DNA of 62,840 nucleotides from Pseudomonadota bacterium (GCA_034439715.1 JAWXAY010000007.1:1-62840); one strand, 5' to 3'; shown: positions 16,948 through 42,062, numbered from the stretch's first letter. Translations and numbers: made by a program. The notes: generated by a model from the letters alone, not told the origin.

Positions 16948-17493
16948 CTAATGTAACGTTCGTTCGGATAAGAACCTGTTTTCCCATCGCATGCGCATCA
17001 TGTATAGACATGCAGAAAGTGCAAATAAGAGAAAATTCCAGGGATTCAACAACACCATCCCAATTTCGGCAACCATGTACCCTGTATACATTGGGTGTTT
17101 CAGATATTTGTAAATTCCTGTTTTACAAACACCCCCACGAACTGCGGGCGCGATGCCAAGACTATTGCCTAAATCGATTGTCGCAATGGTAGAAATTAAA
17201 AATCCAAGAATAGCTAAACCACGAGTAATTAGCATTAGCTCTATGCTTGAGTCAGAGCCACCCAAGTAACACAACGGAAGCATAGCCGAACCGTAGGCGA
17301 CCACTTTGAGCGTTAAGTGTGATACCTCACGAGCTGGCAAACGAACCCAAAAATAAACGGCCGCAAGAACATCTCTGAATACCAATAAGATAAAAAACAT
17401 TTCTTTGCTTTCTAGCCAGCGCTGGAAAGCAATGGCAGCAAACAACAGCATCATCAGCGATGCTATTCTTCCGCTCCAGTCCTTTGGTACCAT
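16948..17493 (-). CDS. ICMT/Ste14/PEMT family membrane methyltransferase
   Basis: LGNSLGIAPAVR, TGIYKYLKHPMYTGY, R..WE.RFL; several TM helices. Confidence 0.75.
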   Translation of the reverse strand: MVPKDWSGRIASLMMLLFAAIAFQRWLESKEMFFILLVFRDVLAAVYFWVRLPAREVSHLTLKVVAYGSAMLPLCYLGGSDSSIELMLITRGLAILGFLISTIATIDLGNSLGIAPAVRGGVCKTGIYKYLKHPMYTGYMVAEIGMVLLNPWNFLLFALSACLYMMRMRWENRFLSERTLH

Positions 17494-17509
17494 TGGCGAA
17501 GGCGTGTTA

Positions 17510-17836
17510 TTAAATTCCTGGTTCCGCAGATTCCTTAACACCCATTACTTCCTTTCCTCTCAATAGCTCATTTGAAAACCGCATTTGCTCCCTAGTTTGA
17601 CGAATGTATTTTGTAAGTGTTTGTGCCAACTGACTTTCATCTTCATCGGTAAAAAGAATCGCCCCGTTTGACTGTCTTGACTGGAGCCTTTGACTTAGAA
17701 GGTCAATCAAAATAACTTCGTCCTCCGTCATTGAAGCCTCTAAATATTGACCCCCGCTATCAGTAGCTCTGACAACAGTTTGAAAACTTGCCCCGAGTGC
17801 AATTGAAATTGCTATCACCTTTAGTATTGATTTCAT
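17510..17836 (-). CDS. 108-aa secreted protein (candidate signal precursor)
   Basis: Sec signal peptide ending VRA; ATGA-coupled to the upstream hydrolase. Confidence 0.7.
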   Translation of the reverse strand: MKSILKVIAISIALGASFQTVVRATDSGGQYLEASMTEDEVILIDLLSQRLQSRQSNGAILFTDEDESQLAQTLTKYIRQTREQMRFSNELLRGKEVMGVKESAEPGI

Positions 17837-18621
17837 GTTTTTTCTCCCTCTCCCTTTAAAAAATTAATAATTTTACTTGTTATTTCATTTGGCTGTTCGA
17901 ATTGTACAAAGTGTGAAGCGTTTGGAACTTCAAAATACGAAAATCCTCCCAACATCGACTCGTGCTTGGCGATTTTAGGCAAAATTAATTTATCGTCAGC
18001 ACCATTTATAAAAAGTTTAGGTCTCTTGTCGACTTTTAGTGACGCCAATAAGGGTTCTGCCGCAGTGGCATCTACCTTGGTGTTAAGAAACGCTGCGGCC
18101 GATACGTTATCATTTAGAATCAATGTCCGTCCACGAGCATGATTGGCAATGCTAAAGTAGAGATCGCCATACGAGGCCAACCACTTGCGAAAAGTCTCGT
18201 TGTCTGGTTGAGCGTCGAACACTTGCGAAGTCTCAGCCAACTCGGGAGTCTGAAATTTAGTATACTGAGTGCTTACACTCTTAAAGGCATCGCTTGAAAA
18301 TGGCGTGCTTAGACAAATCAACGCAGTGACGCGAAATTTTTCTTTTAAAAAAAGTTCTGCCCCGACAATTCCTCCAAAAGAGTGACCACAAAGAATAATA
18401 TCGCCTTTTAGACCGTTTAGCATTTGAGTTAAGTCTTCGAGAATACCTTTATAATCATTTAGTCGGGGTTCTTTGCGGCCGCCAGTGCCAGGTGGATCAA
18501 AATAGGTAACCTCGAAGTCTTTTTCGAGAATATTTAAGCTTCTCATGGTCTCGCCACTCAAGCCGGGACCGCCTGGGATCAACACTAGGTTTGGTTTCGA
18601 ATCAATTTGTCGAGTAGTCAT
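17833..18621 (-). CDS. Alpha/beta hydrolase, prolyl aminopeptidase-like
   Basis: LIPGGPG, GHSFGG nucleophile elbow, GADD, ASHF..EQP. Confidence 0.8.
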   Translation of the reverse strand: MTTRQIDSKPNLVLIPGGPGLSGETMRSLNILEKDFEVTYFDPPGTGGRKEPRLNDYKGILEDLTQMLNGLKGDIILCGHSFGGIVGAELFLKEKFRVTALICLSTPFSSDAFKSVSTQYTKFQTPELAETSQVFDAQPDNETFRKWLASYGDLYFSIANHARGRTLILNDNVSAAAFLNTKVDATAAEPLLASLKVDKRPKLFINGADDKLILPKIAKHESMLGGFSYFEVPNASHFVQFEQPNEITSKIINFLKGEGEKT

Positions 18622-19988
18622 AAAATGCCTCTGACTACACTTTGGTTTTCCAACACAATGTCGAAATCTCTAATCCACCTATAGATAGTTCTGTCACTTA
18701 CGCCTAGCGACTGAGCTACTAATCTGCGATTCCCCGCAAATTCAGCTAACGCCTTTTCAAGTTCTTCTTTTTTGATGGTCTCATTTAATACATGCATGCG
18801 AGAAAACACAACTGGTGCCTGAGGTGCACCAAGAGAAGAATTTGCGCCCAAATTAACCGCTGCGATAACGCTTTGACCGTCAATTACTCGTCTGTCTGAA
18901 AGTATAACAATTCTTTGGATGACATTTCGTAATTCGCGAATATTTCCGGGCCAACTATGAGAAAGCAGGGCCTTCACGCCATCAGCTGCGAGCGTAAACC
19001 GTTCCACCATACAACTAAACTCTTCAAGAAATAAATTAGCATAAAAAACAATATCCTCGGGACGCTCACGAAGTGAAGGCAAGGTAAATACAAATGTATT
19101 GAGGCGTTGTAATAAATCAAGCCTGAAGGACCCTTCGGAAACCATTCGGCCCAAATCACAATTTGTGGCTGCGATAAATCGCACCTTTATTTTTCTGGGA
19201 CGAGTCGAGCCTAGCGGCTGCACTTCTTTTTCTTGCAATACACGTAATAGTTTTGCCTGTAGTGGCAGTGAACACTCGCCAAGCTCATCAAGAAAAAAGA
19301 TTCCATCGTTGGCCTGCTCAAAAAGTCCTATTTTGTTTGATACAGCTCCCGTAAACGCTCCCTTTTCATGACCGAAAAGCTCCGACTCAGCCGTTTCCTT
19401 TGGAATACTTGCCATGTTGGCTGCAACTATTTTCTTTTTAAGCTTCATAGCAATATGTTGAGCCAAAAATTCTTTACCTGTGCCCGTGTCACCAAGAATG
19501 AGAATAGAGGCGTCTGATTTACTTTTTAGGATTCGATCAGCTTGCTGTAGTACCAACTTCACTTGTTTAGAATCGGTTAAATATTTGCGAACAGCGTTTT
19601 CGTCGTTTGCTGCCTTAATTTGACAAACACGTTTGATCGCAATACTTAACTTCTCGAAAAAGTCTTCTTCTTTAAGAATCAGATCGAAGAGGCGCCGTCT
19701 TGTTGCCTCGATAACTCTTCTGACGGATTTATCTCCACTAAGCACTATCAAATATATTTGGGGGAAATTGCAGCTTAGGTAATCTATAAGCGCGATTCCG
19801 TCTTTTTCTTGGCCTTCAAAATTCAAATCAATTATTGCCACGTCAGTTCTGAATTGCCCTACTAACGATTGCCCGCGTTTAACCGTGTCAGCAGTAAATA
19901 CATTGTACTGGTGCTTAAAGCTTAATTCTAAACTTTGAAGCATTTCTGGATCATCATCGCAAATAAGAATTGAAGGCTTTATATTCAT
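18618..19988 (-). CDS. Sigma54-dependent response regulator (NtrC family)
   Basis: Receiver domain, GDTGTGKE, ESELFGHEKGAFTGA, FLDE, WPGNIREL, C-terminal HTH. Confidence 0.92.
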   Translation of the reverse strand: MNIKPSILICDDDPEMLQSLELSFKHQYNVFTADTVKRGQSLVGQFRTDVAIIDLNFEGQEKDGIALIDYLSCNFPQIYLIVLSGDKSVRRVIEATRRRLFDLILKEEDFFEKLSIAIKRVCQIKAANDENAVRKYLTDSKQVKLVLQQADRILKSKSDASILILGDTGTGKEFLAQHIAMKLKKKIVAANMASIPKETAESELFGHEKGAFTGAVSNKIGLFEQANDGIFFLDELGECSLPLQAKLLRVLQEKEVQPLGSTRPRKIKVRFIAATNCDLGRMVSEGSFRLDLLQRLNTFVFTLPSLRERPEDIVFYANLFLEEFSCMVERFTLAADGVKALLSHSWPGNIRELRNVIQRIVILSDRRVIDGQSVIAAVNLGANSSLGAPQAPVVFSRMHVLNETIKKEELEKALAEFAGNRRLVAQSLGVSDRTIYRWIRDFDIVLENQSVVRGIL

Positions 19989-21358
19989 ATATGGCCTAAC
20001 CTGATTTCAAAGCAGGCTCCGCCCAAGGCACTTTGGCGATAAATTAATTTCCCACCGTGTGAGCGGACAATGTGATTGGCTGACGCCAACCCGAAGGCCT
20101 GTCGGTCTGCCTTGCTTGATTTTCCGCGCCCCTGTAAAAAGAGAGTGACTTCAGAATTTTTTAATCCCTGACCATCGTCAGACACCGTTATTGATGCGGC
20201 ACCATCTTTCACGTTCAGTGCTAACTCGACTCTCTCATTACAAGCGCGAAGGCCATTTTCTAAAAGATTCTTAACCGCTCTTTCAAGAAAATCAGGATCA
20301 TGAGCAACAAGAACGGGTAGATCCGGAAGGGTTACTCGAATCCTATCAGTTTCCAGAGGCATCGCGCTCTTAATTTGCTGAACAGAATTTTCTAAGCATA
20401 TTCGAATATCCATTTCTCTTAAGCTTACGGGATCGTTTTCTAAATTATATTTAGCAGCCGTTACTTGATTCAACATCTGATCGGCAATTCTGGGTACGGC
20501 ACGAATGGCTTCTTGTCTTGAGGCTTCATCTGTTGATTGATCTGTCACAAGCCTAAGCATTTGGCGAAGGGCCGCGACCGGGTTATGGAGATCATGAATG
20601 AGCCGCTTGTAGGACTCAGCGCTTAGTTGTTTTGCCCTTTCGTTGGCCAGATTCTCTTTGGTGTTTTCGAGTTCTGTATGAGTATTCATAATGGTTTTTC
20701 GAATTGACTCAAGTTCCTCAATAAGAATCGGGGTCAACCGCAATTCCTTATTCTCTGCGATGGACCTTATCGCATTATCAAGATCTCGAAGAGGCGTCAG
20801 CGCTTGCGCCAGCGAGGCCTTCATTCGGTAGGCTGAAAGGCCGGATATGATAAGCCCAATGAAGAACGTGAACAAAGCCACAAAAATCGTTTGCGTCATG
20901 ATTGGACGAATGGGTGAATACGCAACCACGAATGCTTTGGTCCCCTGGGCGCCTGCTCTTTGAATGGGTGCTTCAAAAATTAAGCTATGTTCGCCAAAAG
21001 TAATACCAAAAATGTTTGTTACCACAGGCTCAGGATTATACGGCTGATCCATTTCTGAAATATTTTTGGTGGAGCCAATAACCAAGCCGTCATGAACAAC
21101 CACTAAATCAATTTCTTTTGTTTCAGTTACGCTCTCAATGACTCTCAAAATCTCTGGCCGATCCTGTGACTCCACCAATGTTGAAAGATAGGGTGAAAGG
21201 GCGCCCAAAAGCTGTGCTCCTGATTTCGACTGATAGAAAAGTGCCATTGTGGCAAACCCTACCGACACCAAAATCGTAATCAGAAACGACATGGCCGTGC
21301 GATAGTTACTCAATTGGTTGTGAACATGCATCGCAAGACTTACAGTTTTGGCTTTCAT
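19985..21358 (-). CDS. Membrane sensor histidine kinase
   Basis: Two TM helices, H-box HDLHNP, NLLEN, DDGQG, GLASA. Confidence 0.88.
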   Translation of the reverse strand: MKAKTVSLAMHVHNQLSNYRTAMSFLITILVSVGFATMALFYQSKSGAQLLGALSPYLSTLVESQDRPEILRVIESVTETKEIDLVVVHDGLVIGSTKNISEMDQPYNPEPVVTNIFGITFGEHSLIFEAPIQRAGAQGTKAFVVAYSPIRPIMTQTIFVALFTFFIGLIISGLSAYRMKASLAQALTPLRDLDNAIRSIAENKELRLTPILIEELESIRKTIMNTHTELENTKENLANERAKQLSAESYKRLIHDLHNPVAALRQMLRLVTDQSTDEASRQEAIRAVPRIADQMLNQVTAAKYNLENDPVSLREMDIRICLENSVQQIKSAMPLETDRIRVTLPDLPVLVAHDPDFLERAVKNLLENGLRACNERVELALNVKDGAASITVSDDGQGLKNSEVTLFLQGRGKSSKADRQAFGLASANHIVRSHGGKLIYRQSALGGACFEIRLGHI

Positions 21359-22911
21359 TGTTTTGCCTTCGCCAGTTTGCTTGAGCAACCTTCGTCGAAC
21401 GTAACCATCGAATAATCTATATATGCATCGGTCAGTATGTTTGGCGTAAAATTAGTCACACAATTTGAGATCCAATAATTCGCGCGCGGATGAAACAGAT
21501 TTATGACTACCGCAGAATCCTCGATGATCTTGAGGCCCCTATGATAAAAGCCTTCTCTAACTTTACGATCTCGGGCGGAGCGCGCCTGTTTAAGAATGGC
21601 ATCAAGCTCAGGATTCTTTAGCCCACTAAAGTTATCAGGGTTAGACGATTCAAAATTGCGCAATAAAAATTCGGTGTCTGGGTAATCCAAGTTCATTGAC
21701 ACCAAAAAAGCCTGATGTGTTTTGTTAGTATAGCCTGCCATCAGTTCATCCCAGGCCATAGGTACCACCTCAATGTTCCATCCCTTGTCTTGCAAAGCCT
21801 TTTCAAAAAAAGTTTTCATCTCTTGATGGCGAGATAATTCAATAGGAATTGCCATTTTTATTTTTTCATTACTCGGACTAGTAGCTGATTTTTGAACTTT
21901 CTCGCTCAAAGCAAGGTCATACCCAGGAATCCCAGGTGGTATATAGCCCTTGGCTGGGAACGCGTCCGGATAAAATTGCTTCCGAAAAGTCTCAGTGTTA
22001 ATTGAATCACGAAACAGTTTGCGAGTAGCTAAAGATTTAAAGGGCCCCTTTGTCGTATTAATTCCAACAATCCAAGTCGCGGCGACAGGACTGGTGATTT
22101 TCTTTCCAGATTCAAAGACTTCGTTTTCATTTGTGAGTGGCCAATTGGCTAAATCATCAATGAGGCCAGCTTTTGCCATATTTATCGCTTCAGTTTCTGG
22201 CACCTCTTTGAGAATTATCTTGTTAAGCTTCGGTAGGCCTAAATGATGTTTTTCGAATCGCACTAATGACAATTCTTTTTTAGCATCGTCGCGAGCAACA
22301 AACCTAAAGGGTCCAGAGCCTATTGGGTTTGCAAAAAAAGTGTCTTTAGAAAGAAGTTTCATCGGCAAAATTTTTGCCGTAGCTCCAGCTAACACTGACA
22401 GAAATGGCGGAAAAGGATATTTCAAATGAACTTCAAGCATATGTCGGCTTGAGTCTTTTAAACCAGTGACTGTTTTAGATTTTCCACTAATAAATTGTTC
22501 CGCGCCCTCAATGCAGTCATAGTATTTTTCTACACGGCTACCGGTTGCGATCGCTCTAGTTAATGAGCCGACAACATCGTTAGCTGTAACCAAGGTACCG
22601 TCATGAAAAACAGCATTTTTACGCAGATAAAAGCGAAGAGTTTTTCCATCAGCGGAAGTTTCCCACTTTTCGGCTAGATCGCCTAAAAGTTTCAAAGTTG
22701 GTGAGAACTTAAGTAAGCCAGAGTAAATCATGTTACCGGCAACGATAGAAGCCGTGTCATTCATTTTCACAGGATCAAGTGTTAACGGCAACGAATAGAC
22801 GGCTTTCACGTAAGCGTGATCATCGCTTCGTAGTGCTCCTAGTACAGAGATATGAAATCCGAGGATTAAGGCAAAAAATAAATAAAATGGCGATACTTCA
22901 AACTGCTTCAT
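21355..22911 (-). CDS. Family 5 (OppA/DppA-like) solute-binding protein with no permease nearby
   Basis: TLDP, LAEKWETSADGKT..FYLRK...FHDG...TANDV, PIGSGPF; RBS GAGGAG before 22911. Confidence 0.85.
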   Translation of the reverse strand: MKQFEVSPFYLFFALILGFHISVLGALRSDDHAYVKAVYSLPLTLDPVKMNDTASIVAGNMIYSGLLKFSPTLKLLGDLAEKWETSADGKTLRFYLRKNAVFHDGTLVTANDVVGSLTRAIATGSRVEKYYDCIEGAEQFISGKSKTVTGLKDSSRHMLEVHLKYPFPPFLSVLAGATAKILPMKLLSKDTFFANPIGSGPFRFVARDDAKKELSLVRFEKHHLGLPKLNKIILKEVPETEAINMAKAGLIDDLANWPLTNENEVFESGKKITSPVAATWIVGINTTKGPFKSLATRKLFRDSINTETFRKQFYPDAFPAKGYIPPGIPGYDLALSEKVQKSATSPSNEKIKMAIPIELSRHQEMKTFFEKALQDKGWNIEVVPMAWDELMAGYTNKTHQAFLVSMNLDYPDTEFLLRNFESSNPDNFSGLKNPELDAILKQARSARDRKVREGFYHRGLKIIEDSAVVINLFHPRANYWISNCVTNFTPNILTDAYIDYSMVTFDEGCSSKLAKAKQ

Positions 22912-23107
22912 GTTCTCCTCAGTCCTGCCAAATGCGAGAATCGAGCCCAATGGTGCCTATTTTTAGCGCAACTATTTGCGGACGACAAAGAAATAGTAAA
23001 TAATCAATGTTTATATAAATTTAGGCTACATATAGAGGTGTATTTATTGCAGAAAAACTCTTAGATCAGTCTCTCATGGGGTCACAAAAGCATTACATTT
23101 TTACATG

Positions 23108-23130
23108 GTAGGTACTGACACGGATGTCAG
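23108..23130. promoter_or_regulatory. Palindromic site CTGACA-N4-TGTCAG (candidate activator binding site)
   Basis: GTAGGTACTGACAcggaTGTCAG; recurs at 31118-31140. Confidence 0.6.
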
Positions 23131-31087: not shown

Positions 31088-31148
31088 AACCTGACACGCA
31101 TGTCAGGTTTTGTGTCAGTAGGTACTGACATCTATGTCAGAATGTCAG
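31088..31148. promoter_or_regulatory. Cluster of CTGACA/TGTCAG palindromes (candidate enhancer)
   Basis: AACCTGACA-cgca-TGTCAGGTT at 31088-31109; CTGACA-tcta-TGTCAG at 31125-31140; extra half-sites. Confidence 0.65.
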
Positions 31149-31240: not shown

Positions 31241-31255
31241 TGGCACGCCATTGCT
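31241..31255 (+). promoter_or_regulatory. Sigma54-like promoter with non-canonical spacing
   Basis: TGGCACGCCATTGCT has both consensus elements but GG-N9-GC rather than N10. Confidence 0.4.
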
Positions 31256-31299: not shown

Positions 31300-31581
31300 A
31301 TGAAAGAACGTAAAATAAAGAAAAAGCTGACACGCTTAGGAGACTACTGGGTTGACAGCGAATTGCTCAAGGAGGGCTACGGTCTTGGAGACATAATTGA
31401 GTTCTCAAGACTGGAACTCCCAGAGCTTATAGATCCTAGTAAGCGAATTCATGTCGGCTGGCTGATTTGTCCAGAATGTTGTGAGTACACACAGATCGAT
31501 CGCCGTAATCCAACTTGTACTCACTGCGGTTGGAATGAAGATGAAGGTTTTTTTCCAGAGCCAGTCAAATGCGCTGCCTAG
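31300..31581 (+). CDS. Small zinc-ribbon protein
   Basis: RBS AAGGAGG; CPEC..CTHCG. Confidence 0.65.
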   Translation: MKERKIKKKLTRLGDYWVDSELLKEGYGLGDIIEFSRLELPELIDPSKRIHVGWLICPECCEYTQIDRRNPTCTHCGWNEDEGFFPEPVKCAA

Positions 31582-31737
31582 AATTTTTCAGAAAAATTAA
31601 ATTTGTAGTTTTTGAATATTGTCGTGTTGAAACATTTTATCAGGTTCGAGAGAGAAACCAAACAAAGTGGATTAGCGCGAGCGATTGGATTTACGAGCAA
31701 AAACAAAATCATTATTTTTTTAACCAGGGAGTTTTTC

Positions 31738-32175
31738 ATGAACACAGAACAAAAAGAACCATTATTGCAATCGAAAAAAAATGAGTATTACCGTTTTAAA
31801 CTAATGCAAGGCCAGACTGCTGAGGACGGCACATTTCAGCGAACCAAAACCGTGGGTATGGCATATCTCGTCGACGGGAAGCACACCTACTCATTGCGGC
31901 TATGGACTCTTCTCAAAGATAAGTTCTATCTTGTCCCAAGAAAGAACGATCAAGCCCTATTCTTGTTAGTGACGCGCGACTGGAATAAAAATCCATCCGC
32001 AAAAAATAAAACATTTTCGAACATCGTCGGAAATGGAAAAGCTGATGCTGCTCTTGGAGTCGTCAAGATCGAATTCGATCTTCTGGATAAGCCCATCTAC
32101 ATGAGCATCCATCCAGAATCGTTTGCGCAGTCGACACGCCTTCCAGTACCGGAGGTGCTCGATGAAGCCGCCTAA
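31738..32175 (+). CDS. Hypothetical beta-rich protein leading the tra operon
   Basis: GGAG upstream of ATG at 31738; no family recognised. Confidence 0.6.
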   Translation: MNTEQKEPLLQSKKNEYYRFKLMQGQTAEDGTFQRTKTVGMAYLVDGKHTYSLRLWTLLKDKFYLVPRKNDQALFLLVTRDWNKNPSAKNKTFSNIVGNGKADAALGVVKIEFDLLDKPIYMSIHPESFAQSTRLPVPEVLDEAA

Positions 32176-32212
32176 CGATTCAAAAATAAAAAACACAAAC
32201 AAAGGAGAACTT

Positions 32213-32500
32213 ATGAAACGTCATAAAATTATTATTACGCTTGGCCTAGTACTGATGATTGGTCTTCTCACTCCTGATCTTGCACACGCGGGACTCGAAT
32301 CGAGCCTCTTGGGACTCAAGATGAAACTCACAGGTGTGATTCTTCCGCTCTTGTCGGTGATCGGAATTGCGTTTGCGGCAATTTCGTTTTTCACCGGAAA
32401 TCCAAATGCAAAACAGCACATCGGCTACGCGGTGTTGGGTTGTATTTTTGGATTCGGGGCGCAGGCCATCGTGGACTTCATTGCTCAAACAGTTCGCTAG
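32213..32500 (+). CDS. virB2: VirB2/TrbC-like pilin
   Basis: Signal peptide PDLAHA plus two hydrophobic helices; first in the VirB2-B3-B4 order. Confidence 0.75.
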   Translation: MKRHKIIITLGLVLMIGLLTPDLAHAGLESSLLGLKMKLTGVILPLLSVIGIAFAAISFFTGNPNAKQHIGYAVLGCIFGFGAQAIVDFIAQTVR

Positions 32501-32515
32501 GAAAGAGAGGCGAAT

Positions 32516-32842
32516 ATGGATGAGCAAGGACTATCTACAACAAAGGTTCCACGGGCTTTAGAAATGAAGACAAAGCTGCTCGGCTTTGAACTGCCCGATT
32601 TGCTTTTGATCTTCATGAATTTAGCTCTGACGAATCTTATTTTTGGGACGACGTCCTTTCGCTATCCGCTGGTATGGGGAACAACGCTAGGGCTGGCGTT
32701 GTTTCTTTTCTTTGCGAAGCGTGGACGACCCGACAACTACCTTCAACACTTGGGCGAGTTCATTGCGCTACCCGCATACAAGGCGGCGGGTGCTCCTGAT
32801 CGCAAATATAGAAAATTTAGAAAGGAAAAGAAAAATGCTTGA
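32516..32842 (+). CDS. VirB3-like membrane protein
   Basis: VPRAL...LLGFE, two TM helices, precedes VirB4. Confidence 0.65.
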   Translation: MDEQGLSTTKVPRALEMKTKLLGFELPDLLLIFMNLALTNLIFGTTSFRYPLVWGTTLGLALFLFFAKRGRPDNYLQHLGEFIALPAYKAAGAPDRKYRKFRKEKKNA

Positions 32843-35348
32843 ATCAAAACAAAAAGATGAATCTTTAGCACACGAACTTCCGTATTGGGATTTCGTCGAT
32901 GCCCCGCAAGCACACGCGATTCTCTTTGATGGCTCCTTAGTAGGCGGCCTTAAAGTATCTCTTATGGACATTGAGTGCTTGAACGATGACGAGGTGAATA
33001 GTTTTACAACGGGACTACGATCAGCACTCAATTCGATAGCTGAAGGCACGACTCTTCAGTTTGTTTTAAGTGTTGGGTCGGATTTTTCTGAAATGATTAA
33101 AAATCATAAGGCGGGATTTGCAGAAAAAATTCACCCTTTGGTGAAGACAATTGCCGATTATCGTGAGCAAAAAATCAAAGATGCCGTGGATTCCAAAGAA
33201 CTCTATAAACCAGAACTTTTTATTTATTTGCGCACTCCTATGATCGAGCAAAAGAAATCTGGTTTTCTGAAAAGAAAAGAACAGTTTTCAGAAAACGCGT
33301 CCAAGGCATATCAGGATACACTTGAAGTATTAGGCCAAAATATTGACACGTTAGTTTCATCACTTGAGTCGATTGGACTGGAATCTAAATCACTTACAAA
33401 ACTAGAAATTATTTCGAATATTTATAAATTTCTAAACCCGAAGCGATCAGATGAGGAGCCAACTCCAAAAGTTATCACTTTCAAAGAACACGATCTTGAA
33501 AAAGAAGTGGTTGAAGAGATTGAATGGTTGGCGGCGCAGTCTCCACGAGAGCAACTTGTATTTGGTGATCTACTTCTGGGTTTTGGCCAGTTCACCTTGG
33601 ATTCTTACTATCATCGCGTAGTTACTCTTAAAACATTGCCAGAGATGACCTTTGCGGGTCAGTTTGCAAAATTTCTGAGACTGCCGTTTCACTACGACTT
33701 GATTCTATCGCTTGAGGTGCCTCCGCAGGCGAGCGAGATGGCAAAGCTTCAACAGAAACGCAAGATGGCTCACTCTATGGCCTTAACCCAAGGGAATAAA
33801 GCCAGCGATCTTGAGAGCGAGTCAAAGCTTACATCTACAGAAGAATTAATACGTGAGCTTCTGAATACTGGGCAGCGAATCTACGCAGCCCAGATGAGTA
33901 TTGTGCTTCGAGCGCCCGCTACACCTGATGGCACAAAAAGGCTCAACCGTGAAGTGCGAGAAGTTCTTTCGCGCTTTCGATCTTTACAGGGAGCAGAGGG
34001 CCTAGAAGAAACCGTTGGCTCCTGGAAGATTATCAAGGGGAATTTCCCAGCCGCTCCAATTAGCTTGGAGCGAGCTAGGAAAATGAAAACCAATAACCTA
34101 GCAGATTTTCTTCCTGTGTTTGGACCGCGTGAAGGAGACAAAGACCCTGCCGTTATTTTTAGAAATCGCTTGAACGGTCTTGTTAGCTACAATGGGTTTG
34201 ACCCAGGGCTTCCGAATTACAATTGCTTGGTTACCGGCTCATCAGGAGCAGGAAAAAGTTTCTTGAACAATTGCATCTTGCTTCAGGAGCTTGCTCGTGG
34301 TCTTCGCGTATTCATAATCGACATTGGCGGGTCGTATAAAAAACTCACTGAGAGTTTAGGCGGCCAATATCTTGAAATGAATTTATCGGATAACTATCGA
34401 ATCAATCCCTTTGATATTCCAAACCCAAAAGAAGCCCCGAGTAACCAAAAATTAAAATCACTCCTAGCAATTATCGAAAGTATGGTCGCAGAAGATGACA
34501 AGGCAAAGCTTGCCAAACTTGATCGCGCACTTTTAGAACGCGCAGTGATTGAACTCTACAAATCACGAAGAGCCAAAGGCGAAGTCCCAACGCTCACTGA
34601 TCTTGCAAAATATCTTTCAGTTTTTGAAGAAGACTCCATGCGAGCCATTTCAAAGATGCTTTATCTTTGGACTGGTGAGCGTCCCTATGGGCGACTTCTT
34701 GATGGGCCAGGAGGTTTAAGAACAGACGCCCCGATTTGTACTTTTGATCTTAAAGGTCTTTCAAGTTATCCCGATCTTCAGAGCGTGATGATCCTGATCT
34801 TGACGGATTTTATTCTCACCCAAGTCGAGCAGGATAAGACGAATAAAAAAAGAATTATTCTCGATGAAGCATGGGAGTTACTTAAATCCAATGCCGCTGC
34901 AAACTTTATGGAGTATTGCGCTCGAACTTTGAGAAAAAGCGGAAGTGGAATCACCTTTATCACCCAAGGTGTGGAAGAAATTGTCGCAAGCCCCATTGGG
35001 CCAGCGATTCTTAATAATACCGCAACGAAATTTGTGATGCTTCAACGTGGTGACTCAGAAATTTTGGCAAATGCGCTCAAGCTCAACAGCCGAGAGATAA
35101 ATCTCATTCATTCGCTTCAGCAGAGAAAAGGCGAATTCTCTGAGGGCTTCATGATCGAAGGCGATCACCGCCAGGTCGTTCGTATTTTCCCAAGCCCATT
35201 TGAGTATTGGCTATCCACTTCGGATGCCGGTGACAATAAATACCTTTCAGATTTGAAAGATCAGGGACTCACTCTGGTGCAAGCAATTGAAAAAGCAGCA
35301 CTGACTTTTCCAAAAGGGATATCTCAAGGACAAAGGGAGGCTCTGTGA
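32835..35348 (+). CDS. virB4: VirB4/TraC conjugation ATPase
   Basis: GSSGAGKS, IDIGGSY, INPF, ILDEAW, ARTLRK, TQ. Confidence 0.9.
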   Translation: MLESKQKDESLAHELPYWDFVDAPQAHAILFDGSLVGGLKVSLMDIECLNDDEVNSFTTGLRSALNSIAEGTTLQFVLSVGSDFSEMIKNHKAGFAEKIHPLVKTIADYREQKIKDAVDSKELYKPELFIYLRTPMIEQKKSGFLKRKEQFSENASKAYQDTLEVLGQNIDTLVSSLESIGLESKSLTKLEIISNIYKFLNPKRSDEEPTPKVITFKEHDLEKEVVEEIEWLAAQSPREQLVFGDLLLGFGQFTLDSYYHRVVTLKTLPEMTFAGQFAKFLRLPFHYDLILSLEVPPQASEMAKLQQKRKMAHSMALTQGNKASDLESESKLTSTEELIRELLNTGQRIYAAQMSIVLRAPATPDGTKRLNREVREVLSRFRSLQGAEGLEETVGSWKIIKGNFPAAPISLERARKMKTNNLADFLPVFGPREGDKDPAVIFRNRLNGLVSYNGFDPGLPNYNCLVTGSSGAGKSFLNNCILLQELARGLRVFIIDIGGSYKKLTESLGGQYLEMNLSDNYRINPFDIPNPKEAPSNQKLKSLLAIIESMVAEDDKAKLAKLDRALLERAVIELYKSRRAKGEVPTLTDLAKYLSVFEEDSMRAISKMLYLWTGERPYGRLLDGPGGLRTDAPICTFDLKGLSSYPDLQSVMILILTDFILTQVEQDKTNKKRIILDEAWELLKSNAAANFMEYCARTLRKSGSGITFITQGVEEIVASPIGPAILNNTATKFVMLQRGDSEILANALKLNSREINLIHSLQQRKGEFSEGFMIEGDHRQVVRIFPSPFEYWLSTSDAGDNKYLSDLKDQGLTLVQAIEKAALTFPKGISQGQREAL

Positions 35349-36064
35349 AGACTCTTAAGAAGAACATTAAGAATACTCTCATGGCAGGGATCATGAGCAT
35401 TCTGCTCCTTGTTCCACAGCCGAGCCGTGCTGATATATTCGGTGGTGACATTGCCGTTCTTGTGCAGATTCTAGCCAATGCACTCCAGCAGCTTGCGCAA
35501 CTAAGGCAAATTCTTGGCACTGGTGCGGATTCGCTCAATCTCATGCGAGACATTAATCGAGGAATCAGAGACGGCCTTGCGGTTATTCAAATCTTAAATC
35601 CAAAGTTCAATCCTGGGCTTTACGGAGATTTAGATACCGCTGACCGAGTGCTTTCTGCCATTCAAGACCTCTATGGTCGAATCCCGCAAACCGGAGAGGC
35701 TAGGCTTCAGCAAGCACAAGACCGCTCGGTTTCTGAGAGCATTGCCATGAATGGCACGCTCTTTCGTTTTGCGGACGAAGCAGATGGCGAAAGTAAAAGA
35801 ATTATTGCGCACGCTCAAGTGGTTAGCCCACAGGGGGCGGCAAAACTTACTGCGCAATCACTAGCAGTTTTAATTGGAGTGACAACCCAAGTTCTTCGTA
35901 CCAATTCCATGATGCTCAAAATGATGGGCGAGAACATGGCTCTACAAAATCGAAAAGAAAAAGTTCAGTCAGCACAGTTTCGCTCCCAATACGACGGATT
36001 GACTAGCGCTTTGGGTGGCCTGCCAAAAACAACGAACCTTAAACCTTTAGACGGAGGGAATTAA
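35345..36064 (+). CDS. VirB5/TrbJ-like secreted T4SS protein
   Basis: Signal peptide, helical and Gln-rich; between VirB4 and VirB6. Confidence 0.55.
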   Translation: MKTLKKNIKNTLMAGIMSILLLVPQPSRADIFGGDIAVLVQILANALQQLAQLRQILGTGADSLNLMRDINRGIRDGLAVIQILNPKFNPGLYGDLDTADRVLSAIQDLYGRIPQTGEARLQQAQDRSVSESIAMNGTLFRFADEADGESKRIIAHAQVVSPQGAAKLTAQSLAVLIGVTTQVLRTNSMMLKMMGENMALQNRKEKVQSAQFRSQYDGLTSALGGLPKTTNLKPLDGGN

Positions 36065-36065
36065 T

Positions 36066-36944
36066 ATGCCGCAATTTGATCTTCTCGGCACTCTCATGCG
36101 CGACCTCCATCAGGAGTTTGTGAGGATTTACTACCTCATGCTTCCGGTGTTTTTCGCACTGTCAGTCGCCGTTGCGTGGTTCCGCACCCCACAAGGGGGC
36201 GTTGAGTTCATTGATACGTTAAAACGTGCCTTGATCGCAACGATTCTTCTGGTTGCGTTTCCTGATATTAGCCGAGCCATTATTTTTATTGCAGACGGAA
36301 TTGCAGAAAGAATTGATAGTCTCAACAGTATCGACACGATTATCCGAATGGCTCAGGAGAAATCCCAAGGGTATTCGCTTTCGCTAACAAGTATTTTGCT
36401 GCAATTTGATGATCTCATTATCGCGGTACTGTCATTTGCAAGTTATCTTGTTCTCTATATTGCAAGATATCTAACGATAGCCATGTATCACTTCTTTTGG
36501 GTGTTCTACATGGTGTCGGCCCCGCTCCTACTGCTCTTCAATCTATTCCCCGGTACTAGCCAAATCACAACGAATCTTTTCAAAGGCATGATCGAAGTTG
36601 CTTGTTGGAAAATAGTCTGGGCGATTTTGGGAGCAATGCTTGCCTCCCTCAGTTTTGGAGAGTTGTACCGAAGCGAGGGAAGCTACGTTGCACTCATCGT
36701 CATGAATTTCATCATTGCGATAGCAATGCTCGCAACTCCGATGGTTGTGCGGTCACTTGTAAGTTCTGGCTTTCAGTCCATGTCTTCAACAATCGGACCA
36801 GCGGCAGTTGCGACAATGGTGGCGGCTCCTACAAGAGCTGCTTTTGTAATGAAAACAGCAAAGGACATCGGGCCACATACGGCGTCCTATGTGCGAAGTA
36901 AATTCAGAAACTCAAACTCATTTAATTCAACGAAGGGAAACTAA
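36066..36944 (+). CDS. VirB6/TrbL-like polytopic membrane protein
   Basis: Multiple TM helices; operon position. Confidence 0.7.
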   Translation: MPQFDLLGTLMRDLHQEFVRIYYLMLPVFFALSVAVAWFRTPQGGVEFIDTLKRALIATILLVAFPDISRAIIFIADGIAERIDSLNSIDTIIRMAQEKSQGYSLSLTSILLQFDDLIIAVLSFASYLVLYIARYLTIAMYHFFWVFYMVSAPLLLLFNLFPGTSQITTNLFKGMIEVACWKIVWAILGAMLASLSFGELYRSEGSYVALIVMNFIIAIAMLATPMVVRSLVSSGFQSMSSTIGPAAVATMVAAPTRAAFVMKTAKDIGPHTASYVRSKFRNSNSFNSTKGN

Positions 36945-36947
36945 ATT

Positions 36948-37535
36948 ATGAATCAATCAATAAAACTACAGGCAGCGAGACTGCCAAAAATGCTAAGCGA
37001 TCTTTCGCACTCAAACCAGTTCTTGAAAGTATTTTCCGCGTCAGCTCTTGGTGTCGCGGTACTCACTCTCATTTTGGTGTTTGTTTTAGCAAGCAAAGCT
37101 CCAGTGGTATTAACACTTGCGCCAACAGGAGAAAATCTTGAAAAAGTGGAACTCCCAAAACCAGAAGATCAAATCAAGGCAGCAGTAAATCGCTACCTTG
37201 AAAAACGCTATAAGTGGGAACCAGAAAGCGTAAAGCAAAAGCTTTTTGATGCGCAAGCCTTTGTACTCCCATCAAGCATGAAAGCATACCTTGGGGCAGC
37301 CGCTAATGTTGCCAGGTTCTCTATAGAAAAGCTCGTCTCGCAGCGAGTGTACCCAGACAAAATAGAAGTAAGCCTTGAGAAGAAAACAGTATTTATTACC
37401 GGAGACAGGGTGACTTCGATCCAAGGTCTAAACGCTGCTGGAAACTTGCGACTTGAACTCAGTTTTGAAAGTGGCCCACGCACTAGAAATAATCCCTGGG
37501 GTCTTTATATCACCAAAGAAAGAGAGGAGCTGTAA
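36948..37535 (+). CDS. VirB8/TraK-like protein
   Basis: Single TM and C-terminal RTRNNPWGLYIT motif. Confidence 0.75.
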   Translation: MNQSIKLQAARLPKMLSDLSHSNQFLKVFSASALGVAVLTLILVFVLASKAPVVLTLAPTGENLEKVELPKPEDQIKAAVNRYLEKRYKWEPESVKQKLFDAQAFVLPSSMKAYLGAAANVARFSIEKLVSQRVYPDKIEVSLEKKTVFITGDRVTSIQGLNAAGNLRLELSFESGPRTRNNPWGLYITKEREEL

Positions 37536-38254
37536 TGAGATTTGTCATATCAGTGATTCTTTTATTTTCGTGCCCAAGTGACCTTTGGGCAGAAACACGA
37601 GTAAGGCGTATTGCTGTGCAAACGGATCAAATCGTAACTGTAAGAACGGCTTTGGGAATTGCAACGATCATCCAAGTACCGGATCGCCCCAACAGCGTTG
37701 TTGTGGGCGATCAAGAAGCGTTCAAAGTCGAATACTTAGACCAAGCAATTACGATTAAGCCGCTTCACGGCGGTGCAAATAGTAATCTTTATGTTTACAC
37801 CGACTATCAGCGCTTCAACGTGGCACTGGCGACGGGGGCACAATCGATTGCTGACTATGTCGTGTACCTCGAAAATCTAAAAGAGAAAGTTAAGGAACCA
37901 AAGCCAACACTAGTTTGGATGAGGTTTAAAAATATTTTAAAAAACGAAGCGATCACTCTAGAAGTAAAGCGACTTGGTAGAGCAAAAGACGGCGTTTTGA
38001 TTGTTGAGTTTTTTCTGCGTGGCTTGAAAAAAGAAAGCATCAAACCAGAATGGATTTGGCTTACCCAAAGTGGTGCGACAAAGCCGATTCAAAATCTATT
38101 TCTCTCTGGTCTTGAGGTGCGCCCAGGAGAAAGCGTGCAAGGTCTAATGCAGATTTCAAAATCCGACATTGATGAAGAGGCACCTATTCGCATTGAGATG
38201 AGAAGAAAAAAGATGTCCTTTCTCAGTATTCCAAAGGTGGTTTCATGGAAGTAG
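37535..38254 (+). CDS. VirB9/TrbG-like outer core protein
   Basis: VRTALGIATII, VVVGD, IKP, SNLYVYTD. Confidence 0.75.
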   Translation: MRFVISVILLFSCPSDLWAETRVRRIAVQTDQIVTVRTALGIATIIQVPDRPNSVVVGDQEAFKVEYLDQAITIKPLHGGANSNLYVYTDYQRFNVALATGAQSIADYVVYLENLKEKVKEPKPTLVWMRFKNILKNEAITLEVKRLGRAKDGVLIVEFFLRGLKKESIKPEWIWLTQSGATKPIQNLFLSGLEVRPGESVQGLMQISKSDIDEEAPIRIEMRRKKMSFLSIPKVVSWK

Positions 38255-39213
38255 TAGCAATCAAAGAGCGTCTTTCAAAGATTCTTTTGAAAGAGGCGCT
38301 CCCTCTTACAAAAAAGCGCGATGTGAACTGGTCTGCGGTTAAGAAATTTGCAGGAATAGGTATCGGATCTGCGGTGCTTGTCTTGCTGGTAATGCCGACA
38401 CCAAAAGAAGAGCAGAAAACATTTCATGAGAAAACAGAAGGCGGAACTACAGCGCAATCATTTGCTCAAGAAAATAATCCAACCCAAGACGCCCTTGCGC
38501 AGCTTCAGGCCGCGAGAACCAATGTTGGAGCGGTGCCTAACTCCCTTGATTATCTGTATCAAGGGAGTAGCGGATCTGGTGCAGGTAAAAGCCAAGATCG
38601 AAATAGCTCGATGATTCTAACCCGTGGAGGACTCGACTCGAAGACGCAGCTTTCTTCAGGTTGCCGAATCAACGTTCGGCTACTTCAGACAGCCATCGTT
38701 GCTAATCAAGCGATGCCTGTCATTGGCCTGGTCGCAAATGATGTAATTCAAGAAGACAGCGTTGCCATTCCTCAAGGATCAAAACTCTTAGGTGATGTGT
38801 CTTTTGATGAAAGCACAGAGCGTGCACAAATCAGTTGGAAATCTATTCAGTTTCCTGACGGCAAAGAAAGGCAGATTGCTGCAATTGGCGTAAGCCCAGA
38901 CGGTCAAGTCGGTGTTGAAGGAAAAGTTCACTCCGAAGCACTGAAAAATATCGTAGGCCAAACACTCACTCGTTTCATTGGAGCCTATGCAGAAGGTTCG
39001 ATGCAAACAGGAGCCTTCGGTGCAAACCAAGGTGGCAGCGAAAATGGAATGAAAAAAGCCGTTGCTGATACAGCTAAGGATCGAGCCGAGGCATGGGGTG
39101 AGGACATGAAAAAGGAAAAAAAATGGATCGAACTTAAAGCGGGCTCGGAATTCTATGCCGTGATTACTCAGACGTTTGTATTTCGCGACCCAGGAGCAAC
39201 CAATGGCCGATAA
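38245..39213 (+). CDS. VirB10/TrbI/TraM-like core protein
   Basis: TM, linker, IPQGSKLLG, RAQISW..I.FPDG, DGQVGVEGKV. Confidence 0.8.
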   Translation: MEVVAIKERLSKILLKEALPLTKKRDVNWSAVKKFAGIGIGSAVLVLLVMPTPKEEQKTFHEKTEGGTTAQSFAQENNPTQDALAQLQAARTNVGAVPNSLDYLYQGSSGSGAGKSQDRNSSMILTRGGLDSKTQLSSGCRINVRLLQTAIVANQAMPVIGLVANDVIQEDSVAIPQGSKLLGDVSFDESTERAQISWKSIQFPDGKERQIAAIGVSPDGQVGVEGKVHSEALKNIVGQTLTRFIGAYAEGSMQTGAFGANQGGSENGMKKAVADTAKDRAEAWGEDMKKEKKWIELKAGSEFYAVITQTFVFRDPGATNGR

Positions 39214-40855: not shown

Positions 40856-41304
40856 ATAATAAGAAATGTAACTTTTATTATTTTGCACTCATTTACTTGA
40901 TCGCGTTTTCACTCGCTATTGTGGGGTGCGCGACACAGAGCAAAAGCATCGGCTTTGGGGGTGCCATTGGAGCAGGAGGCGGCGCGATGCTTGGAGGCAT
41001 AGCTGATCCTGGAAAAAACGGCGAATACAGAACTCGTAATGTCATAGTTGGAGCAGCCCTGGGTGGCATGGCGGGTATGGTCGCTGGCTCCGTTATCCAT
41101 GAAAATACTGAAAAGCAAAAACAGGAAGCCTTTGCGAAAGGCCAGGCTTCGGCTCCTAAAAAAAGCCAAGGCGAAATGCCGAGCCTAAAGAATCCGAAAG
41201 TTGAGGCTCGCTGGGTAGATGCCAAGAGTGCTGGAAATCGTTATATCGAGGGACATTGGGAATACATAATTATCGAACCCGCACGCTGGAACGGTGCCGA
41301 ATGA
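40852..41304 (+). CDS. Glycine-zipper lipoprotein
   Basis: Lipobox IVGC; GGAIGAGGGAMLGG...GAALGGMAG. Confidence 0.7.
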   Translation: MNNKKCNFYYFALIYLIAFSLAIVGCATQSKSIGFGGAIGAGGGAMLGGIADPGKNGEYRTRNVIVGAALGGMAGMVAGSVIHENTEKQKQEAFAKGQASAPKKSQGEMPSLKNPKVEARWVDAKSAGNRYIEGHWEYIIIEPARWNGAE

Positions 41305-42062
41305 AATACGAAAGCGGCCAAAACATACCCGATCATGTAGCTGATGCCCTAAGGTTAACTGGAAAAGTTGGCTTTCTAAGCCACGCCTTGTGGCGAGATT
41401 GTTTTGCCGAGAAGTACAATCTCCGTTGGCAAAGAAGGCAACTTAGAAATTTAGTAAAAGAGAAAATCCTGCGAGATTACGCAAAAACTTTAAACAACTG
41501 CTACTTCGTATTGAGCATTAAGGGACGTCGACTTCTGGAAGACGAAAATAGAAACGTCGTGAAGCCATCACCATTAAGCCAACTTCTACATGACGAAAAT
41601 GTCGCCCGCTCACTCATCAACTTAGATAAGTCTGGACTGCTTGTGGGCTGGAAAACAGAAAATGAACTCAAGAGCACTCAGGGTAAAGTATTTCAATTAA
41701 ATCGGGATGCCAGAAACAAGAAATATCCCGACGCTGTTCTTAAGATAAATACGCATGGAATCGAAAGAACGATTGCCATCGAATACGAGAGGACCAGGAA
41801 GTCTGCTGGGCGCTACAAGAAAATCCTGTGGCTATATTCTAGGTCGATGGATTTCGGCATGGTGGTTTTTATTTGTGAGAACAAATCCATTGAAACCGCA
41901 ATTAGAGAAAAGTTGAAATACATGCAGTTGCCAGATTTACTTAAACGAGTGGCGTTTGTTCAAAGTGCCAAGTGGCAGATTGACCCTGCGAACGCGCCAC
42001 TTGAACTGGGAAACAAGGTTTTTACTCTGAAAGAAATTTGTAGAAATAAAAAAGCCGTATAA
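41301..42062 (+). CDS. Replication-relaxation (Replic_Relax) family putative relaxase
   Basis: N-terminal wHTH-like region, LLHD, YPDAVL, IAIEYERTRKS..RY; next to VirD4. Confidence 0.7.
   Translation: MKYESGQNIPDHVADALRLTGKVGFLSHALWRDCFAEKYNLRWQRRQLRNLVKEKILRDYAKTLNNCYFVLSIKGRRLLEDENRNVVKPSPLSQLLHDENVARSLINLDKSGLLVGWKTENELKSTQGKVFQLNRDARNKKYPDAVLKINTHGIERTIAIEYERTRKSAGRYKKILWLYSRSMDFGMVVFICENKSIETAIREKLKYMQLPDLLKRVAFVQSAKWQIDPANAPLELGNKVFTLKEICRNKKAV

Follow-up and report, generated by a model that had tools for sequence, protein, structure and literature searches.

The 62,840-nucleotide stretch JAWXAY010000007.1 (the window), which is one whole contig of the 3.26-Mb draft genome GCA_034439715.1, carries on its minus strand a block of six genes (positions 16948 to 22911) for a family 5, OppA/DppA-like periplasmic binding protein, a sensor histidine kinase, a sigma54-dependent response regulator (the activator), an alpha/beta hydrolase, a small secreted protein, and an ICMT/PEMT-like membrane methyltransferase (Table 1). 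It is somewhat probable that a family of integrative and conjugative elements (ICEs) of the Bdellovibrionota uses this block as its module for sensing and regulation, in which a self-derived, tailored peptide would be sensed and both the type IV secretion system (T4SS) operon and the block's own operon would be switched in response. Sequence comparison across related loci shows a conserved unit, a link of this unit to a T4SS, a promoter of the autoregulatory type, and palindromes that are shared by the two upstream regions and covary with the activator.

A conserved six-gene block without transporter genes

As the preliminary description of this DNA had it, the six genes are co-oriented and the first five are joined by 4-bp overlaps, with ATGA found at all four junctions (binding protein/kinase, kinase/activator, activator/hydrolase, and hydrolase/small protein). 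A gap of about 16 nucleotides separates the small open reading frame (ORF) from the methyltransferase gene, assuming that the latter starts at the ATG at 17493. The start of the binding protein gene was placed at the ATG at 22911, because a longer, TTG-initiated ORF would overrun the promoter. The 69 window ORFs of at least 100 amino acids, out of 79 listed, were scanned against profile libraries, and none matched an ABC permease or ATPase (ABC_tran, BPD_transp_1). Together with the overlap of the binding protein and kinase genes, this agrees with the earlier claim of a binding protein that is without an ABC partner and is coupled to a kinase. The usual pairing of such proteins is with a cognate ABC permease and ATPase; in 27 loci, the next gene is that of the kinase. 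The kinase has two hydrophobic segments that flank a stretch of about 110 amino acids, predicted to be periplasmic, and an H-box can be read from its translation. The activator has the features of the NtrC class, namely, a receiver domain, an AAA+ domain with the GAFTGA motif, and an HTH_8 domain.

A scan of species-representative genomes retrieved 37 loci with the binding protein (43 to 59% identity), all from Bdellovibrionota-type metagenome-assembled genomes (MAGs) except two, one labelled Saprospiraceae and one Elusimicrobia. These loci and genome G013 make up the 38 tabulated loci (L, G, and C numbers denote loci, genomes, and contigs, respectively). The full order of binding protein, kinase, activator, hydrolase, and methyltransferase is present in 27 of the 38, eight are interrupted by contig ends, two lack the activator (L064 and L065; L066, among those cut by contig ends, has the same form), and one (L049) lacks both kinase and activator. 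The gene arrangement is not a product of chance, because the same order recurs in 27 of the 38 related loci. The downstream neighbors, on the other side of the methyltransferase gene, differ in almost every locus and include BREX, restriction-modification, CBASS, arsenic, chemotaxis, and SOS genes, and the activator-less form in L064 and L065 is set among chromosomal polysaccharide genes.

Among 100 related genomes, orthologues of the binding protein (47 to 54% identical) occur in six, spread over six families, and the remaining matches are paralogues with at most 29% identity. Orthologues of the ICMT-like enzyme were found in eight of these genomes, five of which also have the binding protein; the other three cases are decayed remnants in G082 and G049 and a very short, little-informative contig in G075. 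In a large public protein collection, the binding protein family comprises at least 246 sequence clusters at an E value of ≤1e-80, under generic names only.

Two unusual forms of the block deserve mention. In the MAG labelled Elusimicrobia (L049:2601-5863), the genes for binding protein, hydrolase, and methyltransferase are followed by those for a 729-aa HATPase_c protein and a 354-aa Sigma54_DBD protein, as if the element carried its own sigma54-like factor. The remnant L085 (G082:C1:1968374-1971400) keeps the activator, the hydrolase, the small ORF (with an EPGI end), and the methyltransferase, has lost the binding protein and the kinase, and adjoins the tail genes of a T4SS operon.

Association with conjugation genes

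T4SS genes lie within the retrieved flanks of 18 of the 38 loci, and in genome G002 a VirB4 gene is located 21 kb upstream of the block on the same contig. The condition under which the preliminary description would have been refuted does not hold, since homologous blocks maintain their composition (27 of the 38) and are often found beside this same T4SS. L032, L033, L039, L041, L055, and L062 have the T4SS operon immediately divergent from the binding protein gene. Cargo is inserted between these two operons in L031, L037, L050, L051, L052, L057, and L059 and likewise in the window, where they are separated by 8.4 kb of glycosyl-transferase, OmpR-type two-component, and arsenic genes. In L024, L043, L046, L060, and L061, the T4SS genes follow the methyltransferase gene on the same strand. 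Flanks without T4SS genes contain mostly island cargo, such as type I restriction-modification, Abi, SIR2, CBASS, retron-type reverse transcriptase, UmuDC, chromate or mercury, and integrase genes.

The VirB4 gene of G002 (G002:C48:9657-12263), the closest relative with the block, contains four in-frame stops, which suggests a decaying ICE.

Promoter-type elements upstream of the block and of the T4SS operon

Elements of the sigma54 type were scored in the 200 nucleotides upstream of the binding protein start against a 12-position consensus, with GG-N10-GC required and with random 230-nucleotide windows of the same loci as background. An element with at least 8 of 12 matches is present in 26 of the 27 loci that carry the activator, compared with 9% of the random windows, and one with at least 10 of 12 matches is present in 14 of the 27, compared with 0.7%. 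None of the three loci without the activator has a canonical −24/−12 element in this position. Because the −24/−12 element tracks the activator, no sigma70-like promoter was found upstream of the binding protein gene, and rpoN is encoded in the genome, the six-gene operon is most likely sigma54-dependent and autoregulated.

A similar motif, TGGCAC-N4-TTGC, stands ahead of the first gene of the T4SS operon. Motifs of this type (GG-N9-GC) precede the T4SS leader gene in all 11 loci examined of this ICE type. The T4SS leaders of the YcaO-type elements described below have an N3 spacer, with GG and GC separated by 8 nucleotides, and the T4SS motif of L043 has an N5 spacer. In the whole genome, the canonical spacer N5 gave 32 matches, 27 of them intergenic; N4 gave nine, of which the three intergenic ones are ICE T4SS leaders; N3 gave 18, with six intergenic; and N2, N6, and N7, when pooled, gave 23, none of which is intergenic. 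Because the N4 and N3 matches show an intergenic bias relative to 0 of 23 for these other lengths, the short-spacer motifs are real signals of some kind. Classical work on sigma54 promoters is reported to have found the spacing between GG and GC to be strict, and canonical promoters are not known to tolerate other lengths. That the T4SS operons systematically have a short spacer thus poses a puzzle of its own with regard to promoter recognition.

Two further observations concern motifs of these types away from the two operons. Motifs of the form TGGCA[CT]-N3-TTGCA that lie outside ICEs (contigs C67, C80, C85, and C100 of genome G000) are also intergenic, which hints at a separate motif class. 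Two small ORFs without annotation (4734-5093 and 4370-4702) are directly preceded by a strong canonical −24/−12 element (5113-5128, minus strand, 11 of 12 matches), with no CTGACA palindrome nearby.

Palindromes that follow the activator

The 3.26-Mb genome as a whole has only three exact copies of the palindrome CTGACA-N4-TGTCAG, where about 0.2 copies of a 12-base palindrome are expected by chance (genome length/4^12), and all three are in the window, at the two promoters. A 23-nucleotide repeat (23108-23130 and 31118-31140) embeds one palindrome copy at each place. A palindrome of a different type, CTCTCA-N4-TGAGAG, is present in 15 of the 88 retrieved loci, three of which (L004, L022, and L035) are the same place in G002, always 230 to 270 nucleotides upstream of the binding protein start. 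A second copy of it lies upstream of the T4SS leader in six loci, with 2.4 to 3.9 kb of cargo between the copies in L037, L050, L051, and L052.

The type of palindrome follows the helix-turn-helix (HTH) of the activator. Activators with S-E-A-T in the HTH go with the half-site CTCTCA (13 to 14 loci), S-D-R-T with CTGACA (the window), S/N-V-R-T with GCGACA (L055 and L057), H-K-T-T with TAGCAA (L024 and L048), and H-T-V-T with CTGCAG (G015). In G015, the T4SS leader gene is of the same type as in the window and the palindrome is different. The searches in L024 and in contig C38 found a single palindrome copy each. This correspondence between palindrome and HTH is the strongest evidence for binding of the activator to both regions, and the inspected sequences give good support to two conclusions: that the activator binds lineage-specific palindromes upstream of its own operon and of the T4SS operon, and that the binding protein, kinase, and activator control the transfer genes. 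The suggestion in the preliminary description that the operon gates conjugation gains from the exact palindrome common to both upstream regions as well as from this covariation across lineages.

The binding protein and the small secreted protein

The binding protein matches PF00496 with 178.6 bits (cut-off, 32.4) and stays below the named equivalogs OppA, DppA, NikA, GsiB, and CntA, the best being GsiB with 79.6 bits against 594; NikA gives 64.9 against 393. Its nearest solved relatives are the peptide binders DppE, OppA, MppA, PrgZ, and HbpA. The Asp of an invariant D-Y-P-D motif aligns with an Asp of HbpA and DppE, and in DppA and OppA this Asp holds the amino terminus of the ligand.

Between the hydrolase and methyltransferase genes, an ORF with a signal peptide and a G/P-G-I/V end is present in 26 of the 30 genome-contig loci. 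Three of the other four have a small ORF that ends in P-T-V or P-H-I, and no small ORF was found between the two genes in L049. The small ORF is also present in the window, L024, L030, and L085, which gives a total of 33 of 34 loci with a P-x-[IV] end. Signal peptides were judged by eye from a basic start, a hydrophobic core, and an AxA-type site. Across loci, the total length ranges from 37 to 118 amino acids, and conservation is confined to the signal peptide and the last three residues. The predicted mature peptide has only about 8 to 13 residues in L056, L054, and L059, and the mature part ranges from about 8 to 25 residues, with the tail alone conserved, when L040 and L057 are considered with these three. 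A precursor-like ORF located between two enzymes, in which the Sec signal peptide and three C-terminal residues are the constant parts, has a layout that may be compared to that of a ribosomally synthesized and posttranslationally modified peptide, and the small gene behaves in the sequence comparison like one for a precursor peptide.

The 108-aa protein of the window has no family match in Pfam or NCBIfam. Its structural model is of too low a confidence for an argument from the fold (predicted local distance difference test [pLDDT], 59.9; predicted template modeling score [pTM], 0.31), and this long form presents two predicted helices and a loose tail. A complex prediction with residues 28 to 518 of the binding protein (alignment of 30 rows) and residues 26 to 108 of the small protein, its mature part (16 rows), returned a score of 0.00 and was weighed neither way.

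The hydrolase and the methyltransferase

Among 26 orthologues of the hydrolase, residues G17, G18, P19, G79, H80, S81, G83, G84, and H237 are invariant and D210 is nearly so. The protein has no signal peptide, and its model is of high confidence (pLDDT, 93.3). The nearest folds are those of small carboxylesterases, an enol-lactonase, the S33 peptidase tricorn factor F1, VinJ, and BioH, the last of these at rank 38. With regard to an S33 prolyl aminopeptidase, the best sequence match in the PDB is 3wmr, the score with TIGR01250 is only 37.6 bits (cut-off, 167.65), and esterases head the list of fold matches.

The methyltransferase has 25 invariant residues, including H149, P150, M151, Y152, R183, and E187, and matches the structure of the archaeal Ma-ICMT (4a2n) with an E value of 3.5e-5; the cofactor region toward its C terminus is conserved. 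It scores 35.3 bits with PF04140 (cut-off, 24), 27.7 bits with the equivalog NF040696 (cut-off, 160), and weakly with LmtA and MddA. Its candidate substrate ends in P-[GTH]-[IV]; because this end has no terminal cysteine, the pathway is not a CaaX pathway. The hydrolase and the ICMT-like enzyme have thus retained their catalytic residues, and both may act on the small peptide.

Sister elements with a different tailoring enzyme

The same genome contains three further copies of a related T4SS, four in total. On contigs C14 (L069:704-6209) and C36 (L070:833-6342), genes for a YcaO protein, a small secreted protein, a family 5 binding protein, a kinase, and a sigma54 activator are divergent from a T4SS whose VirB4 is 74 to 77% identical to that of the window. 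This operon has a canonical −24/−12 element and repeated palindromes of its own (in C14, three copies of CCACAG-N5-CTGTGG). On contig C38, a periplasmic protein, a kinase, and an activator are encoded upstream of the T4SS. The YcaO form is found in 6 of the 100 relatives and adjoins a T4SS in L080, L081, L083, and L084. Seven places were inspected for small ORFs with a signal peptide and a near-terminal cysteine; four have one (C14, L080, L082, and L083), and none was found in the other three (C36, L081, and L084).

The YcaO cassette thus resembles the block in its small secreted peptide, its tailoring enzyme, its family 5 binding protein without a transporter, its kinase, and its position at the T4SS; it differs in having a YcaO enzyme and a cysteine peptide, whereas the block has an alpha/beta hydrolase, an ICMT-like enzyme, and a peptide ending in P-G-I/V. 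It is mainly because of this common plan, in which the tailoring genes can be exchanged, that the small ORF is read as a precursor. The earlier claim that the operon makes its own signal holds in part: the signal peptide, the hypervariable length, the P-x-I/V end, and the pairing of YcaO with a cysteine peptide in the sister ICEs are all consistent with it, whereas the role of the self-made peptide as the ligand of the sensor is one that we infer.

Proposed mechanism and alternative explanations

In the well-supported part of the proposed mechanism, the activator would drive its own six-gene operon, as feedback, and the divergent T4SS operon. Its activity would be set by the kinase, whose periplasmic domain would be served by the transporter-less OppA-like binding protein. 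Beyond this, four points are ones that we infer: which molecule is the ligand, its methylation at the C-terminal carboxylate, whether modification or export comes first, and the direction in which the response goes. The ligand would be a peptide derived from the small secreted protein of the operon, in which selection would maintain only the signal peptide and the C-terminal P-G-I/V. The ICMT-like membrane enzyme would methyl-esterify the C-terminal carboxylate on the cytoplasmic side, ahead of Sec export, with the hydrophobic signal peptide substituting for the prenyl anchor of classical ICMT substrates, and in the cytoplasm the alpha/beta hydrolase would either cleave off the ester or shorten the end that contains the proline. 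The peptide might then activate the kinase, as in a donor quorum with a bistable switch, or inhibit it, as in a self-recognition that blocks transfer between donors (compare PhrI). A tentative, and on balance doubtful, extension is that Gram-negative ICEs of the Bdellovibrionota have private peptide channels, in which an ICMT-methylated P-G-I/V peptide is edited by an esterase, read by binding protein and kinase, and converted to a sigma54 output, and in which exchangeable tailoring cartridges and matched pairs of activator and palindrome prevent cross-talk.

Several observations weigh against the proposed mechanism. About half of the loci have no T4SS genes in the retrieved flanks. The existence of the activator-less forms (L064 to L066) and of the form without kinase and activator (L049) shows that the binding protein, hydrolase, and methyltransferase can function outside the control of conjugation. 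The operon promoter of the window is itself a weak match (9 of 12), and the GG-N9-GC motif on the T4SS side departs from the canonical GG-N10-GC, which leaves the use of sigma54 at the T4SS promoter putative. The long forms of the small protein, such as that of the window with about 85 mature residues, are too large to diffuse without further cleavage, and the block encodes no protease. Both tailoring enzymes are without signal peptides, yet the peptide would be exported, so the order of modification and export is an assumption. Finally, the fold of the hydrolase does not separate an esterase from an aminopeptidase: because its fold matches mix esterases, lactonases, and S33 peptidases, the predicted chemistry lies between ester hydrolysis and peptide trimming.

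Alternatively, the binding protein, kinase, and activator might control the T4SS in response to an outside cue (for example, peptides from prey, recipients, cell-wall turnover, or nutrients), with the other three genes serving not for signaling but as co-regulated accessories, for instance, for modification of the envelope or mating surface. This is unlikely, though it agrees with the relation of the binding protein to general peptide and murein-peptide binders, with contig C38, where a periplasmic protein, a kinase, and a sigma54 activator stand beside a T4SS without tailoring genes, with the location of the tailoring enzymes in the cytoplasm and of the sensor in the periplasm, and with the activity of ICMT/PEMT-family enzymes on lipids and small molecules (compare the weak LmtA and MddA matches). 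An outside cue does not explain why, in 33 of 34 loci, the genes of the two enzymes enclose an ORF with a signal peptide, a free middle, and a P-x-[IV] end, nor why YcaO and a Cys peptide belong to the same operon in the sister elements.

Less likely still is that the small protein, instead of being a diffusible signal, assists the sensor in the periplasm as CpxP or ZraP do, with a C-terminal tail that would dock on the binding protein or the kinase, so that the circuit would report the state of the envelope and not cell density. A small modulator in the periplasm is part of the sigma54 system ZraPSR, and the two helices and loose tail predicted with low confidence for the long forms would suit such a role, as would their size, since about 85 mature residues are too many for unaided crossing of the outer membrane. 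On the other hand, the mature part of about 8 to 25 residues in L054, L056, L059, L040, and L057 offers no space for a folded modulator.

A role of the block as the metal regulator of the neighboring Czc-type efflux genes, with the ICMT-like enzyme as an analogue of CzcN/NccN (CzcN being ICMT-like) and the binding protein as a NikA-like metal binder, was considered because genes for two small proteins rich in His and Cys and for a CusA/CzcA-type RND pump follow downstream of the block in the window and an RND pump is also near the blocks of L043 and L053, and was rejected as very improbable, because the downstream neighbors vary from locus to locus, none of the three palindromes, and hence no activator site, is near the efflux genes, and the profile matches of the binding protein to peptide binders are stronger than that to NikA.

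Genomic setting of the block

The hallmarks of an ICE that were matched in the window are VirB4/TraC, a TraD-like coupling protein, VirB2, VirB9, and VirB10, and an integrase. The T4SS operon begins with a zinc-ribbon leader, a conserved protein of about 145 amino acids, a VirB2-like pilin, a VirB3-like protein, TraC/VirB4, and a VirB6-like protein and continues with a TraE/VirB8-like protein, VirB9, VirB10, the TraD-like coupling protein, a lipoprotein, and a MobC/Replic_Relax-like protein. The last is the relaxase candidate, on a weak match (29.6 bits against a cut-off of 200). A search of the window for the element ends found no tRNA and no convincing flanking direct repeats. The cargo on the contig includes mercury, Czc-type efflux, and arsenic genes, as identified in Pfam and NCBIfam scans.

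The first proteins of the T4SS operons in the window and in L031 to L062 (the zinc-ribbon leader, 31300-31581 in the window; the protein of about 145 amino acids, 31738-32175 in the window; and small sigma70-region-4-like proteins) nearly all end in -CAA, -AA, or -VA, endings that look like a C-terminal degradation tag. Between the block and the CusA/CzcA-type efflux operon are two genes for secreted small proteins (16426-16761 and 15342-15719, minus strand) that both contain the motif C-H-F-G-H-C-A and may be metal-binding accessories. The RND adaptor gene of this region (11173-11748, minus strand), which lies between those for an outer-membrane factor and the CzcA-type pump, encodes a short form (181 to 191 amino acids) that matches only the C-terminal end of the adaptor model; as the short form is found in three loci (including L043:7290-7835), it is probably not a truncation. 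Two lipoprotein genes (3-1082 and 12954-14576, both on the minus strand) are paralogous, with 72 to 74% nucleotide identity over 111 to 130 nucleotides, and a further LP540/LP222 pair is present on contig C19 of G000.

Table 1. Positions in the window of the genes of the block, the two control regions, and the conjugation genes
Feature	Position	Strand	Basis and remarks
Binding protein (family 5, OppA/DppA-like, periplasmic)	21355..22911	-	PF00496 2.7e-52; N-terminal hydrophobic signal or anchor
Sensor histidine kinase	19985..21358	-	HATPase_c 2e-14; RstB/PhoQ-type matches over residues 196-464
Sigma54-dependent response regulator (activator)	18618..19988	-	Response_reg, Sigma54_activat 2e-54, HTH_8; GAFTGA in translation
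Alpha/beta hydrolase, cytoplasmic	17833..18621	-	Abhydrolase_6/1; GGPG, GHSFGG, Ser-Asp-His triad
Small secreted protein, candidate precursor peptide	17510..17836	-	108 aa; signal peptide with AxA-type site; variable middle; E-P-G-I C terminus
ICMT/PEMT-like membrane methyltransferase	16948..17493	-	ORF open from 17541, likely ATG 17493; PF04191 6e-9, PF04140 1.5e-8
−24/−12 sigma54-type element, canonical GG-N10-GC	22933..22948	-	9/12 consensus matches; about 20 nt upstream of the ATG of the binding protein gene
Activator-type palindrome CTGACA-N4-TGTCAG	23115..23130		Exact; about 170 nt upstream of the operon −24/−12 element
Two copies of CTGACA-N4-TGTCAG	31091-31106, 31125-31140		Exact; 100-150 nt upstream of the promoter-like motif of the T4SS operon
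−24/−12-like motif TGGCAC-N4-TTGC	31241..31254	+	Ahead of the first T4SS-operon gene; spacer one nt below canonical
T4SS/conjugation operon	31300..42062	+	Pfam, NCBIfam, orthologous operons in related loci
Tyrosine integrase	43047..44156	+	Phage_integrase 1.8e-24

Comparison with known systems

A literature search found no published description of this six-gene architecture, and its parts are best considered beside the systems that resemble them. The Vibrio LuxP-LuxQ-LuxU-LuxO cascade shares with the block the sequence of a transporter-less periplasmic binding protein, a membrane kinase, and a sigma54 activator. LuxP is a ribose-binding-type protein that binds autoinducer 2, and LuxQ is a hybrid kinase that needs LuxU, a protein with a histidine phosphotransfer (HPt) domain. 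The binding protein of the block is of another family, the Pfam scan of the window ORFs found neither a Response_reg domain in the kinase nor an HPt gene, and the activator scores 220.7 bits with the LuxO equivalog, the best NCBIfam LuxO score, against a cut-off of 800. The LuxP/LuxQ/LuxO architecture invoked in the preliminary description is therefore an analogy and not a matter of membership. The same architecture of binding protein, kinase, and sigma54 activator is found in AioX-AioS-AioR, often on islands; there, arsenite is the signal that is bound and an oxidase operon, not a T4SS, is controlled, and AioX belongs to a different family of binding proteins.

With respect to the candidate precursor and its tailoring, Bacillus ComQXPA unites in one operon the genes for a precursor peptide, the enzyme that tailors it, a kinase in the membrane, and a response regulator, and the peptide part is highly polymorphic between lineages. 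ComQ attaches a prenyl group to ComX, and ComP senses ComX directly. Unlike the block, ComQXPA has no binding protein, no sigma54 component, and no connection with conjugation. Carboxyl methylation and demethylation are exemplified by ICMT/Ste14 with a-factor, BioC/BioH, and LCMT-1/PME-1. These pairs resemble the block in the combination of a methyltransferase that forms carboxyl methyl esters with an alpha/beta-hydrolase esterase, and BioH is among the fold matches of the hydrolase. Compared with ICMT/Ste14-type pairs, the block has no prenylcysteine and no CaaX box, and the likeness to yeast a-factor and Ste14 that had been drawn earlier also goes no further than analogy, the peptide being without the CaaX cysteine.

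Control of the timing of conjugative transfer is known for a handful of models only, and to our knowledge peptide signaling of conjugation is limited to Gram-positive plasmids and ICEBs1. What the block offers is a directly testable circuit: its DNA sites and its candidate ligand are defined, and two enzymes are candidates for the tailoring. If the proposed chemistry is true, it would be a bacterial use of ICMT-family enzymes on a ribosomal peptide, with a new kind of precursor; if the private peptide channels exist as well, their signal would belong to a new class of modified peptides, and conjugation would for the first time be seen under the control of a peptide pheromone outside the Gram-positives. 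Matched pairs of activator and palindrome, together with exchangeable tailoring genes, would explain how related ICEs coexist in one genome, as the four T4SS copies do here.

The closest parallels concern conjugation itself. The enterococcal pheromone-responsive plasmid pCF10 (PrgZ, PrgX, and PrgQ/iCF10) has, like the block, an element-borne binder of the OppA family and a small element-encoded peptide, and the sensing of the peptide decides the expression of the conjugation genes; PrgZ is a detectable homologue of the binding protein (E value, 4e-14). PrgZ passes the peptide to the Opp permease of the host for import to a cytoplasmic RRNPP receptor. The block differs in that it has no permease, its binding protein gene overlaps that of a kinase, the output is through sigma54, the host is Gram negative, and the peptides are not fragments of lipoprotein signal peptides. 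In the RapI-PhrI system of ICEBs1, an ICE-encoded peptide that is secreted and processed signals how dense the cells with the element are and determines when transfer begins (PMC5812530). As far as that review's account of ICEBs1 extends, the likeness to the block is the link of an element-encoded secreted peptide to the onset of transfer, a link that on the side of the block is conjectural; unlike the block, ICEBs1 belongs to Gram-positive hosts, imports an unmodified pentapeptide, and uses a cytoplasmic Rap receptor, with no two-component system, sigma54, or tailoring enzymes in this account. A Gram-negative example in the same review, in the part that treats it, is the control of ICEMlSymR7A by acyl-homoserine lactone and TraR (PMC5812530). 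Beside these systems, a signal-gated switch of conjugation as proposed for the block would be a known kind of control, built from a combination of components not previously seen together.

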